This document shows, piece after piece, positions 15,162 through 23,650 of a stretch of DNA of 51,915 bases. The notes beneath the pieces were generated by a model. It was given only the letters and a program-made list of their open reading frames with translations. It was not told where the DNA came from and searched no databases. Each line of letters begins with the position of its first letter. The first letter of the stretch is position 1. Position numbers and translations under genes: made by a program. Source of the DNA: Candidatus Fermentibacterota bacterium (GTDB lineage: Bacteria; JAFGKV01); contig JAUXFG010000004.1 in assembly GCA_030620115.1 (NCBI GenBank), forward strand, positions 1 to 51,915, read 5' to 3'.

Positions 15162-16949
15162 ATGACACGGTGCAAGTTTCTCGTAGCTCTGGGGGTCATC
15201 GCTCTTCTTGTTCAGGGTGCGTCGGCCCAAGTCACGGTGACATTCAGGCTGAACACCTGCACCGTGAACGCCTACGATATCACGGACGAGAGCATGGTCC
15301 AGGTACGCGGGAGCATCGCACCCATCACCTGGGGTGACGATTCCGTGAACTTGGTGAACACGGCCGGTGATTACTGGGAAGCCGTGGTCACTTTCGACGC
15401 ATCGGAGACAGGGAATACCCTGGAGTACAAGTACTATGCCGAGGATTGGGAAAGCACCGACAATAAGACGTTGCTGCTCGACCAGGATGTGACCCTGGAT
15501 CTCGCCTACTTCAACAATGGCTTCAATCCTCCGTACACGCCCACGGATGATATCGACCTCTGGTTTCGGGTCAGCATGGAGTCAAATGCCATCTTCAACC
15601 CTGATACGGATGAGGTGGGCATGAGAGGTGCCGGCGTCGATGATCTGTCATGGTCGACAAATCTTGTCTTGGATAGAGAGGATGAAAGCTTCTACTACTC
15701 GGGCCAGGTGACTGCTCCTGTGGACTCTGCCGGAGTGACGATCGAGTACAAATTCGTGCGAGGCACCGCTCCCGACGAGTGGGAGGATCTGCCGGAAGGG
15801 AATCGAACACTTGTGATCCCCGCTGAAGATCAGACCATTGTCTGGGCATATTGGAACAATGAGGAGCCTTCTCCCGCCATTATCGACACCGGCGTGGTCA
15901 CCTTCAAGGCCGACATGTCCGACCTGATTTCCAATGGATGGTTCGATGCCGGGACTGACTGGATCTCGGTTCGCGGGAACTTCGAGGGATGGGGCAACCA
16001 GGAGCCCATGGTCCCCGGTCTTATCGAACCCACCATCTATGAGTGGGGATATGAGATCATTGCCGAGCATGAATCCACCATCTCGTGGAAGTTCAAGGCA
16101 TTCCCCGATGAGCACTTCCTCGATTCCGGCTGGGAGCTGGGCGCCAACCACGAGTTCCCCTTCATTGGTGAGGAAATATTGGATCCCCGGTTTCCGGATA
16201 TCTGGCCGGCGGGAGGTCCTGTGGAGGTCGATGTTACACTCAACGTCGGCTGTGATATGACCAACGCCATATGCTGGTATACTGGGGAGCCCTTCCCATC
16301 CATCGGGAGTGTGTGGCTCGCAGGTGATGACGGCACTGGTCCCCTGGAGTGGCCAAGCTGGGACCCGGATGACACCACAAGCATGGTCCGGCTCTACGAT
16401 GACGGGACCAACGGAGATCAGACCCCAGGCGACGGCATCTGGGCGGCTGATGTGCTCATGCCCGAAGGAACATCGAGCACGATCCTGTACAAGTATAGCG
16501 TCTGGTACCCAGGCGTGGAGAATCTCAACGACGGAAGCACTCCCATGGACAACGAGGCTGGCTTCGCCATGAACCATGCCGCTGTCCTGGATAGGTACGA
16601 GGAGAACCAACAGCTCTTCGACGCATTCGGCGACCAGCCTGTTCATGAGATCAAGGGTGCGACAAAACCGGAAACCGTGGCACTTGGCTACAACTGGCCG
16701 AATCCCTTTTCTCAGAGCACGTGCATCAACTACACCATTCCCGTGTCCGGTGAGGTGAACCTCTCAGTGTACGATCTCAGCGGGAGAAAGGTGACCATGC
16801 TCCATGATGGCTATCAGAATGCAGGCATGTATGCTGCCATGTGGAATGGCAGAGATACCAGCAATAAGCCTGTGGCAACTGGTACGTATCTGATGAGACT
16901 GGAGAGCGCGGCAGGCTCCGCCACCAGAAGGATTGTGGTTCTCCGATAG
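15162..16949 (+). CDS. Secreted protein with four CBM20-like (starch-binding) domains and a T9SS/FlgD-type CTD
   Basis: RBS AAGGAGG; signal peptide; repeated VTF...V.VRG...W...(L/I)EYK(Y/F)...WE...N pattern; LYDDGTNGD..PGDGIW motif; CTD NWPNPF...VYDLSGRKV...WNGRD...TGTYLMRL...RRIVVLR. Confidence 0.8.
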   Translation: MTRCKFLVALGVIALLVQGASAQVTVTFRLNTCTVNAYDITDESMVQVRGSIAPITWGDDSVNLVNTAGDYWEAVVTFDASETGNTLEYKYYAEDWESTDNKTLLLDQDVTLDLAYFNNGFNPPYTPTDDIDLWFRVSMESNAIFNPDTDEVGMRGAGVDDLSWSTNLVLDREDESFYYSGQVTAPVDSAGVTIEYKFVRGTAPDEWEDLPEGNRTLVIPAEDQTIVWAYWNNEEPSPAIIDTGVVTFKADMSDLISNGWFDAGTDWISVRGNFEGWGNQEPMVPGLIEPTIYEWGYEIIAEHESTISWKFKAFPDEHFLDSGWELGANHEFPFIGEEILDPRFPDIWPAGGPVEVDVTLNVGCDMTNAICWYTGEPFPSIGSVWLAGDDGTGPLEWPSWDPDDTTSMVRLYDDGTNGDQTPGDGIWAADVLMPEGTSSTILYKYSVWYPGVENLNDGSTPMDNEAGFAMNHAAVLDRYEENQQLFDAFGDQPVHEIKGATKPETVALGYNWPNPFSQSTCINYTIPVSGEVNLSVYDLSGRKVTMLHDGYQNAGMYAAMWNGRDTSNKPVATGTYLMRLESAAGSATRRIVVLR

Positions 16950-16968
16950 ATCCGCACGTCTTCGATCC

Positions 16969-17006
16969 AACCGGGGAAGAGAGTTCACCTCTTCCCCGGT
17001 TTCTCT
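16969..17006 (+). terminator. Rho-independent terminator of the TonB receptor operon
   Basis: 13-bp perfect stem AACCGGGGAAGAG/CTCTTCCCCGGTT, 7-nt loop, pyrimidine tail, 19 nt after the stop. Confidence 0.75.
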
Positions 17007-17037
17007 GTGAGGGAGTTCTCCATGAGTATATGCGCAC

Positions 17038-17220
17038 TAGCCCGTATTCCTTACCGGCCATCTGCTGCAGCGTTGCATTTGGCCCTGCCTGCGGCGTTAC
17101 GCTCCTTCGGACTCCTCGATGTATCGCAGGGGATACGCCTGCGGGGTCCTCGGTCGCAAGCCTTGCAGCCAAAGCCAACTACAGCGCTTCGCGACGAAAG
17201 CCGGTAAGAAATGCGGGCTA
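17038..17220. mobile_element. MITE with ~21-bp terminal inverted repeats and TA ends (copy 1)
   Basis: TAGCCCGTATTCCTTACCGGC (17038-17058) versus GCCGGTAAGAAATGCGGGCTA (17200-17220), 19/21 complementary; internal homology to the element at 23440-23650. Confidence 0.8.
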
Positions 17221-18299
17221 ACGATCCAGGAAGCAGGATTGCACCAGATCCCATCACGGGAGCGGAATCTGTTGCTGAGCTGATGAATAAGGCCTTTCTC
17301 GCCTACAATTCCGCCCGTCTCCGCGAGGCGGCACTCCTCCTGGTGGAAGAGATCTCAGCTCCCGATGTTACCACGGTATGGACCTTGAGTGGGGCTCTCA
17401 CTCCCGCAGGGCTTGGAACATCATGCCTGGTGCCGCTCATGCAGGCAGGATGGGTCGACTGGCTCATATCCACCGGGGCAAATCTGTATCACGATCTCCA
17501 TTATGTCTTGGACCTGCCGCCGCGGATGGGTCACCCGAATCTCGATGACAGGGAGCTCAAGGAACAAGGCCTGGTGAGGATCTACGATATTCTCCTCCGG
17601 TACGACGTTCTCCTCTCCACCGATGCCTTTGTCCGATCCGTGGTGGAAGAGCAGATCCAAGGTCATGGGAAGCCTCTCAGCACGCCTGAGCTCCACGCAG
17701 CATTGGGCAAAGCGGCGGCGAAGGAGAGGCAACGCCGTGGTGTATCCAATCCGGGCATTCTCGAAACAGCAGTCAATCTCGACATCCCGATCTTCTGCCC
17801 GGCCCCTGGAGACAGTTCCATCGGCATGAACATTGCGGCGCTTTCTCTGCCAGGCAAAGCCCTAGTGATCGATCCCACAGCCGACGTGAATCTCGCGGCA
17901 TCCATCGTCTGGGAAGCCAAGCAAAAGGGTGGAAAGAGCGCGGTCATCATTCTCGGCGGTGGCGCACCCAAAAACTTCGCGCTCCAGACGGAGCCTTATC
18001 TTCAGGAGATTCTGGGTCTTAAGGAAAGCGGTCATGACTTCATGATACAGATCACCGACGCTCGCCCGGACACCGGAGGCCTCTCAGGAGCGACACCGTC
18101 GGAGGCAGTCAGTTGGGGAAAGATCGATCCGCTGGAACTGTTCAACACGGTGGTCGTGTATCTCGATATCACGGTAGCCCTGCCGCTCCTGACTTCCTAT
18201 CTCCTGGCAAAAGCAAAACCCAGAGAGCAGAAAAGGCTGATGTCCCGCAGGCAGAAGCTCGTGAAGGATCTCAAGGATGCGGTTAGTATTCAGACATGA
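17211..18299 (+). CDS. Deoxyhypusine synthase-like protein (bacterial homospermidine-pathway type)
   Basis: SGALTPAGLG, ISTGANLYHDLH, APGDSSIGM, GGGAPKNF, DTGGLSGATPSEAVSWGK with the active-site Lys retained. Confidence 0.92.
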   Translation: MRANDPGSRIAPDPITGAESVAELMNKAFLAYNSARLREAALLLVEEISAPDVTTVWTLSGALTPAGLGTSCLVPLMQAGWVDWLISTGANLYHDLHYVLDLPPRMGHPNLDDRELKEQGLVRIYDILLRYDVLLSTDAFVRSVVEEQIQGHGKPLSTPELHAALGKAAAKERQRRGVSNPGILETAVNLDIPIFCPAPGDSSIGMNIAALSLPGKALVIDPTADVNLAASIVWEAKQKGGKSAVIILGGGAPKNFALQTEPYLQEILGLKESGHDFMIQITDARPDTGGLSGATPSEAVSWGKIDPLELFNTVVVYLDITVALPLLTSYLLAKAKPREQKRLMSRRQKLVKDLKDAVSIQT

Positions 18300-23439: not shown

Positions 23440-23650
23440 TAGCCCGGACTTCTCACCAGCTTTCGTGGCGAAGCCCCGCGTCGGACGCGGGATTCTGAAT
23501 GCGAGGCTTGCGACTGAGGACCCCGCAGGCGTATCCTCTGTCCGCCAGCTGGCGGATCGAGGAGGCCGACGAAGCGTAACAAAGTCCCGCGTCTGACGCG
23601 GGATGCCATATCGGCTGCTGCAGCCGAAACTTGGTGAGAAGTTCGGGTTA
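23440..23650. mobile_element. MITE copy 2 (opposite orientation) carrying nested palindromes
   Basis: TIRs TAGCCCGGACTTCTCACCAG / TTGGTGAGAAGTTCGGGTTA; core GGCTTGCGAC.GAGGACCCCGCAGGCGTATCC shared with the reverse complement of 17038-17220. Confidence 0.8.

Follow-up and report, generated by a model that had tools for sequence, protein, structure and literature searches.

A miniature transposon that appears to replace the start codon it displaces at a deoxyhypusine-synthase-like gene, and at other conserved genes, of a Candidatus Fermentibacterota bacterium

A stretch of 51,915 nt of contig JAUXFG010000004.1 from a Candidatus Fermentibacterota bacterium (assembly GCA_030620115.1), here called the window, carries a MITE (miniature inverted-repeat transposable element) within the first codons of a gene of the deoxyhypusine synthase family. 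One terminal inverted repeat (TIR) of the element reads outward as a start codon, which takes the place of the start that the insertion pushed away. This start swap and its tolerance by the gene appear well supported by the sequences compared, and the TIR-donated, in-frame start is very probably the one used by a functional gene. A start swap combined with a translational relay across the element is, on balance, the best explanation of the observations as a whole, the coupling part of it being plausible. The insertion consists of the following features.

17040-17218, forward strand: the MITE, 179 nt, with 19-nt TIRs at 17040-58 and 17200-18, without transposase coding capacity and expected to form one long hairpin if transcribed.
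17038-39, no strand: left copy of the TA target-site duplication, from reading of the sequence and comparison of the flanks of the family.
17219-20, no strand: right copy of the TA target-site duplication, on the same basis.
17211-17213, forward strand: the new start codon ATG, donated by the right TIR.

The two TIRs of the window copy (left, GCCCGTATTCCTTACCGGC; right, GCCGGTAAGAAATGCGGGC) are complementary at 17 of 19 positions. The new ATG is part of the right TIR; it precedes the right TA by 8 nt, just as the old ATG at 17030 precedes the left TA by 8 nt. The open reading frame (ORF) from ATG 17211 (17211-18299) encodes 362 aa with the N-terminus MRANDPGS, and the first 8 nt of this coding sequence (CDS) are MITE sequence. 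In silico deletion of the MITE and one TA brings ATG 17030 in frame with the gene and gives MRTNDPGS, one residue different. These coordinates, the stops, the junction left by removal of the element and the one-residue difference had been proposed in the original prediction, made from the sequence alone, and all were confirmed; its naming of the element as a MITE is borne out by the TIRs, the TA duplication and a repeat family of 352 matches (see below). Compared to the three closest copies with intact right ends (on contigs C25, C211 and C155), the window copy has A instead of G at 17211, changing GTG to ATG, and a paired double change at left position 13 and right position 7 which, judged by eye, keeps the stem.

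The 362-aa protein matches the Pfam profile DS (PF01916) with an E value of 6e-69 and 232.9 bits (cut-off 27), residues 28-330 being aligned on profile positions 9-287 of 288. By this profile match the gene at 17211-18299 would belong to the deoxyhypusine synthase family; its homologs are named deoxyhypusine synthase or homospermidine biosynthesis protein in the source records. In the frame of the gene a TAA lies two codons upstream of ATG 17211, and no other ATG, GTG or TTG was found between this stop and the codons for RIAP. The RIAP motif and the P-I-T/V-x-G motif following it are kept in orthologs of 62-68% identity. Since this N-terminal motif is conserved, the protein must begin at or before it. 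RIAP is preceded by 9 residues in the orthologs of genomes G001 and G002 (same family), and by 8 residues here, counted either from 17211 or from the reconstructed start at 17030. The G001 and G002 orthologs are syntenic, with a gene for a protein with a type IX secretion system (T9SS) tail, a hairpin, AAGGAG, 6 nt and then ATG or GTG. The genome uses Shine-Dalgarno (SD) sites: upstream of the first ATG in 1786 long ORFs, the 4-mers GGAG, GAGG and AGGA are most frequent at positions -12 to -10.

The same insertion was encountered in a second lineage. Sequencing run X9, from another study, contains a strain that is approximately 93% identical. One X9 contig covers 16300-17065 and stops 26 nt inside the MITE (55 differences in 766 nt), and another runs from 17158, 61 nt before the end of the MITE, to 18300 (72 differences in 1143 nt). 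In addition, the 90%-identity protein cluster of the gene has a second member, P0121, encoded on a 1652-nt contig of another public assembly. It is 362 aa long, 94% identical without gaps, and begins MRANHPGSRISP; the repeat-derived R and A are kept and neighbouring residues have changed, with only 2 changes in residues 1-24. Because the X9 contigs enter the MITE and P0121 starts with MRAN, the insertion is taken to be old. Both observations also bear on the original prediction: that the insertion rebuilds the start of the gene agrees with the MRAN start of the second-lineage protein, and that it is tolerated agrees with the X9 contigs entering the element from both flanks. Among the 40 of 138 X9 differences that were listed, third codon positions hold 23 of the 38 that lie in the CDS, and the codon changes comprise 20 synonymous and 15 non-synonymous ones. 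The comparison of the lineages indicates that the gene has stayed under purifying selection.

The element belongs to a large family, which was studied in the window's own assembly (G000; 4.10 Mb, 296 contigs, 98% complete). With the window MITE as query, blastn returned 227 high-scoring segment pairs in this genome. A family profile built from 30 full copies gave 352 nhmmer matches, making up 1.2% of the genome. Of these, 188 span the whole model, and removal of the both-strand duplicates that a palindromic element produces left 145 non-redundant full copies. Of the 183 full matches for which 30 nt of flank is available, 117 are bordered by TA at both ends, 152 have T at -2 and 166 have A at -1, the target consensus being YTAR. 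The modal length is 179 nt (51/183), and the TIRs are conserved across copies. The predicted fold of the window MITE has a free energy of -87.1 kcal/mol (z -4.1), and none of 200 shuffled sequences was as stable; no Rfam family matches the element. The flanks differ at every copy and some copies abut each other, which implies past transposition. The TA duplication and the TIRs point to a transposase of the IS630/Tc1 type as the mobilising enzyme, a superfamily call made from the TA and the TIRs only. No match to PF13358 (DDE_3), and no other partner transposase, was found in the 98% complete assembly; insertion sequence (IS) copies are often left unassembled in metagenome-assembled genomes. 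Neither of two candidate long elements (on C45 and C97) contained a transposase; in place of one there was a gene resembling metallophosphoesterases or no clear ORF. Genomes G001, G002, G032 and G017 yielded no copy of the family; the phylum set for comparison of the host range comprised three genomes. On the contig of the window itself, nhmmer matched only two places, 17040-17218 and one further copy:

23442-23648, reverse strand: second MITE copy in the window, found by nhmmer; flank TA plus the next base form the TAA stop of a 265-codon open frame.

The left flank of the first copy (17007-17039), which by eye resembles the TIR at about 13 of 18 bases, was considered as a relic TIR and rejected on the basis of these matches. 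Abutting copies that share a single TA were seen at C201:489-667, C291:31849-32083, C20:17415-17649, C241:54092-54254, C218:5094-5295 and C272:28188-28387. In such copies the flank of one resembles the TIR tip of another, which suggests that a TA beside an existing MITE end may be a preferred target.

Mapping of the 145 full copies relative to start and stop codons, a check that the original prediction had proposed, revealed that start swaps recur and that stop codons are regenerated. The outward codon at TIR position -8 is ATG or GTG at 82 of the 290 ends; most of the others have GTC or GTT. An in-frame ORF of at least 150 codons follows 14 of the 82 start-bearing ends versus 8 of the 208 other ends (Fisher p = 3e-4). 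Empty sites were then reconstructed by removing each copy in silico, requiring a downstream ORF of at least 120 codons and an upstream in-frame start, which left 37 end/frame combinations. The nearest upstream in-frame start was exactly 8 nt from the TA in 6 of the 37, every other distance occurring 1-3 times, and all six of these cases have a start-bearing TIR. Besides the deoxyhypusine-synthase-like gene, the following loci were curated as start swaps, the last of them as a probable one.

C294:9926-10104: ABC ATPase gene followed by a MacB_PCD/FtsX permease gene, with a native ATGA overlap; MIFRAVPERF has become (GTG)WVRAVPERF.
C148:2859-3037: PstA-like permease gene followed by a PstB-like ATPase gene; MVRTLL (or MRMVRTLL) has become MQARTLL.
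C24:11538-11718: mreC followed by mreD; MreD now starts MRASRVW, and in the Pfam alignment residue 6 corresponds to profile position 6.
C10:60585-60783: polysaccharide flippase gene followed by a GNAT gene; probable swap, in which the TA is the flippase stop and the old start region matches the TIR tip at 7 of 8 bases.

These are real genes with real upstream partners, and the N-termini of their orthologs agree within 1-5 residues. Orthologs of the ATPase/permease pair have a GTGA overlap at the equivalent place, and the PstB-like orthologs read MAPTLL or MAQTLL. The MacB-type permease, PstB-like and MreD genes natively occur in coupled or overlapping pairs. At the mreC/mreD locus the target TA is also the mreC stop codon, restored by the TA and the first G of the element; a 95%-identical MreD variant in another assembly also starts MRASRVW. 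Among the copies inspected, no start was seen to be displaced without being replaced. Several candidates were dropped: C166, with a native start preceded by GGAGGA approximately 80 nt downstream; C145, with a TTG start and imperfect flanks; C186, with a doubtful ORF of 114 aa; C56 and C276:9029, with native ATGs immediately downstream; and C115, C68, C53, C168, C123 and C276:12965, which are insertions in the 5' untranslated region with plausible native starts downstream. Two of these copies, C53:33569-33747 and C276:9029-9219, lie 2-4 nt upstream of the native ATG of a PIN/VapC-like gene and of a 792-aa gene, respectively. As they push any native SD some 180-190 nt away, these genes must rely on the TIR region or on coupling.

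Only 2 of the 145 copies lie in open frames with at least 100 codons on both sides, versus 50% of 2000 random TA sites. At 28 of the 290 ends an upstream open frame of at least 150 codons is closed by a codon whose first two bases are the flank TA. This codon is TAG or TAA at 26 of these 28 ends (examples are C131:19231, C115:44753 and C86:3340); the control frames give 11 and 7. YTAR targets are often stop codons, and an element beginning with G or A restores the stop. In the forward orientation of the family consensus, the boundary TAG immediately closes one of the frames that enter, and the other two have no internal stop and end at the TGA at -6 or the TA-R at +8 of the TIR start; the reverse orientation has one extra TAA. 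The pattern is what survivorship would produce: insertions within gene bodies have been lost, and those by which a stop or a start is re-created are the only ones to have persisted.

The region around the old start contains the following features.

17022-17207, forward strand: upstream ORF (uORF) 1, 61 codons from an SD-preceded ATG across the MITE, in the frame of the gene, closed by TAA 17205-07, 3 nt before ATG 17211.
17030-17221, forward strand: uORF2, 63 codons from the displaced old start across the whole MITE; its stop, TAA 17219-21, overlaps the new start by 11 nt.
17009-17015, forward strand: SD-like GAGGGAG, 6 nt upstream of ATG 17022.
15162-16949, forward strand: upstream gene, an ORF for a secreted protein with a T9SS C-terminal sorting tail (Pfam Por_Secre_tail, FlgD_ig); the same neighbour lies upstream of the G001 and G002 orthologs.
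16971-17006, forward strand: GC-rich hairpin with an 11-bp stem and a 7-nt loop, followed by a T-rich tail, found by eye approximately 16 nt before ATG 17022.

The following course of events is proposed. A TA-targeting non-autonomous transposon (Tc1/IS630-like, YTAR) would have inserted at the TA 8 nt after the A of the original ATG. Its right TIR tip, read outward as ATG-CGG-GC and followed by the duplicated TA, would have created a start at the old distance from the TA; as this distance is the same, the gene restarts in frame and at the same length with a single change (T3A). Ribosomes would bind to the displaced ribosome-binding site and begin translation at either ATG 17022, which has the well-placed SD, or the old ATG 17030. 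They would translate 61-63 codons through the MITE, melting the hairpin, terminate at TAA 17205 or TAA 17219, and re-initiate at AUG 17211. Coupling by both routes had been put forward in the original prediction and agrees with the geometry; we put the chance that it is the main route of ribosomes to the new AUG at about even. The displaced ribosome-binding region is intact upstream of the MITE. In the predicted fold of a transcript covering the full element, AUG 17211 takes part in base pairing at the foot of the -87 kcal/mol hairpin, and the SD 4-mers typical of the genome (GGAG, GAGG, AGGA) do not occur in the TIR. With the MITE present, the frame of ATG 17022 matches that of the gene and is closed by its TAA; the stop of uORF2 consists of the duplicated TA and the next base. 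For termination-reinitiation to take place in E. coli and Haloferax, the overlap or distance has to be less than approximately 20 nt, according to the part of the study available to us (Huber et al. 2023, PMC10666635), and both TAA 17205-07 and TAA 17219-21 lie within this range. At 4 of the 5 swap loci (the deoxyhypusine-synthase-like, MacB, PstB-like and MreD genes), a frame of 59-64 codons from the displaced start crosses the MITE and stops at -6 or +8. Ribosomal bypassing over the MITE was considered and rejected, since the take-off and landing codons do not match. One may further speculate, with the original prediction, that the MITE acts as a structured regulatory leader.

A wider form of this proposal, which we regard as tentative, is that the whole family is translationally transparent and could thereby colonise the tightest gene junctions of a compact genome. 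The TA and the G or A that begins the element would re-form the stop of a gene ending at the target; the interior would be free of stops in the two frames able to enter; and the far TIR would carry an outward ATG or GTG bracketed by TGA at -6 and TA-R at +8. An entering ribosome would be carried through the hairpin and released at the new start, in frame if the old start lay 5, 8, 11... nt before the TA. The ATPase/permease, PstA/PstB and MreC/MreD pairs would then be expressed by way of a transposon-encoded bridge ORF, in a two-step relay.

Several observations weigh against the start swap and relay as outlined. Without the MITE, as reconstructed, the start codon served by the well-placed SD is ATG 17022, whose frame differs from that of the gene. 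The old ATG 17030, which does share the gene's frame, is spaced poorly from this SD, at 14 nt; either it served the old gene in spite of that, or the leader was altered after the insertion. No junction skipping the MITE was found in 4 sequencing runs, so that the pre-insertion sequence is a reconstruction; a search for related loci gave only relatives of 54-67% identity in genome contigs and of 54-62% in metagenome contigs, and no empty site. The GNAT locus does not have the relay geometry, its old-start ORF stopping after 17 codons. Moreover, many members of the family show this geometry (95 of all 290 ends; 23 of the 77 other start-bearing ends), and the enrichment of 4/5 versus 23/77 is weak (p = 0.04, on a family background of about 30-33%). 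The codon-position count given above is a sample, and both ATG and GTG are possible behind the initial M of P0121. Finally, a gene caller picks the first start after an in-frame stop, so the identical annotated starts of P0121 and the MreD variant lend weak support; as the caller was forced to the TIR start, such starts in public protein sets were rejected as independent support.

Three other explanations were weighed. The gene might make no full-length protein, being a decaying pseudogene or starting internally at Met25, with the in-frame ATG of the TIR a coincidence. A start-bearing TIR falls in frame by chance about once in three, and the Pfam DS match begins only at residue 28. However, the 362-codon ORF is intact in two lineages approximately 6% apart, the RIAP-x-P-I motif that orthologs keep lies upstream of Met25, and the same in-frame arrangement recurs at other loci. 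Given the intact ORF, the bias of the differences to third codon positions and the nearly unchanged first 24 residues, we consider a pseudogene very improbable. Target choice by the transposase is a possibility of another kind, as it would add to the start swap rather than replace it: if TA sites similar to the element's own end are preferred, the displaced start would resemble the TIR tip from the outset. Genes with such a beginning would be insertion hot spots, and a sequence similar to the displaced one would take its place automatically. At the window copy the region of the displaced start (ATGCGCAC-TA) agrees with the tip of the TIR (ATGCGGGC-TA) at 6 of 8 bases, but leaving out the ATG, which function requires, and the preferred C before the TA reduces the agreement to 2 of 4 bases. 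The target consensus is a weak reflection of the tips of the element (G/S-rich, Y-TA-R), yet the flank logo holds little information beyond YTAR. At 13 of 290 ends at least 6 of 8 flank bases equal the opposite TIR tip, versus 8.5 in shuffles (P = 0.017), several of the 13 being copies that abut another copy and share a TA. The GNAT-locus flank, with its 7/8 match, is flippase coding sequence and not a relic of an element, whereas at the MacB, PstB and MreD loci the flanks have little in common apart from the start codon. We regard a contribution of target choice as somewhat doubtful.

The TIR start may also be used without coupling, if a transcript begins inside the MITE or an RNase III-type cut removes the left arm and ribosomes bind the right TIR directly. 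The TIR, then single-stranded, would offer the motif GGTAAG or GGTGAG, 3 nt and ATG. The family TIR indeed has GGTGA 3 nt before the start codon, which we take to resemble a 3' extension of the canonical SD. Against this, the motif is weakened to GGTAAG in the window copy, the TIR lacks the 4-mers that mark SD sites in this genome, and no 16S rRNA gene was found in the assembly, so that neither the 16S 3' end nor its anti-SD is readable. A scan of both strands of 16700-17400 revealed no sigma-70-like promoter. The GNAT locus, on the other hand, keeps its TIR start without the relay geometry, and the hairpin at 16971-17006 may terminate most transcripts from the neighbouring gene. There is also precedent elsewhere: according to the available parts of the respective papers, MITE hairpins of Neisseria are RNase III substrates and promoter donors (PMC2229807), and MITEAba12 of Acinetobacter carries an outward promoter (PMC6382973). 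Use of the TIR start without coupling is in our view unlikely.

The published systems were compared by those parts of the cited papers that were available to us. MITEAba12 resembles the present family in that a bacterial MITE donates a start codon from its TIR and affects expression of the neighbouring gene: read outward, its TIR gives the start and the first four residues, MQQS, of the neighbouring CDS at three insertions (Adams & Brown 2019, PMC6382973). In its consensus each of the six frames contains two or more stops, and the fold is weak, at approximately -24 to -27 kcal/mol; a displaced start, a preserved frame and length or a read-through ORF to the new start are not described in the available part of that paper. 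In contrast, the present family swaps starts at 4-5 conserved genes, is stop-free in the pass-through frames, and the swap is held in a second lineage at two loci (the deoxyhypusine-synthase-like gene and MreD). The Neisseria REP2 and Borrelia inverted repeats differ in being upstream 5' cassettes with their own promoter and without TIRs or TA duplication, and replacement of a start that they displaced is not described in what we had of the source (Delihas 2011, PMC3184786). Correia/NEMIS elements of Neisseria and RUP of pneumococcus are, like the present element, TA-flanked MITEs of about 100-180 nt with TIRs and long hairpins that are co-transcribed, and RUP has been linked to the IS630-Spn1 transposase by its TIRs and TA target (PMC2229807). 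Their known effects are on transcripts (promoters, RNase III, IHF), and start replacement is not reported in the portion of this review at hand. RUP has stops in all six frames, and, unlike RUP, the present family was found without a partner transposase in the assembly. The Rickettsia RPE and other ORF-carrying MITEs share the stop-free frames, RPE being frame-respecting palindromic repeats tolerated in conserved genes (Delihas 2008, PMC2229807). RPE is translated within the host protein, whereas here the bridge peptide would be separate and the host protein would restart at the far TIR.

Repeat-supplied stops are known as well. In 36 genes the stop codon comes from a BOX repeat (Croucher et al. 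2011, PMC3049150), as the flank TA and first base here re-form TAG or TAA for approximately 26 long ORFs. BOX, however, is modular and does not target TA according to the material available, and regeneration here follows from YTAR and the G or A as first base. Coupled overlapping gene pairs likewise have the upstream stop within a few nt of the downstream start (PMC10666635, available part); the difference is that the upstream frame here is a transposon-made bridge of 59-64 codons, so that a two-step relay is predicted. In a literature search that had subscription journals and supplements outside its scope, no MITE was found that, at several conserved genes, substitutes for the start it has itself displaced while keeping the frame and nearly the same length and leaving a read-through frame that ends at the new start. 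The term 'start codon' is absent from the main texts of PMC2229807 and PMC11602168. Repeats that donate starts or stops are thus already known, and the in-frame replacement of a displaced start at several conserved genes would be the new part.

A conserved gene does not normally survive the insertion of a transposon within its first codons. One element family here repeatedly survives in this position, as its end re-creates the start codon, or the stop at the other end of genes. If the relay holds true, it would be a simple natural device by which genes remain coupled although 180 nt of structured RNA has been placed between them, and it would explain how very high copy numbers of MITEs are possible in gene-dense genomes. 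For annotation it means that the N-termini and leaders of several genes in this lineage consist of repeat DNA, and that assemblies break at exactly these sites.

The hairpin at 16971-17006 looks like a terminator of the upstream T9SS-tail gene, and an equivalent hairpin is also present in G001 and G002. A simple terminator scan did not flag it, and Rfam gave two sub-threshold matches to miRNA models and nothing else.

Some further observations concern the MITE family at large. At the element core (17104-17170) the summed contig depth in run X9 is approximately 31,000, compared to 6-10 on the unique flanks, and in run X1 it is 342, compared to approximately 3-6. The core is shared more widely than the TIRs, so the family or its relatives are extremely abundant in the X9 and X1 metagenomes. 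At C45:20806-22088 at least 4 MITE copies or fragments flank a gene of 228 aa that is metallophosphoesterase-like by eye. At C97:602-1698 a copy is split exactly at model position 81/82 by an insert of 918 nt, the longest ORF of which is 122 aa and of low complexity; this insert may be a nested unknown element. Finally, 24 of the 352 matches touch contig ends, and the family is probably a cause of assembly breaks.

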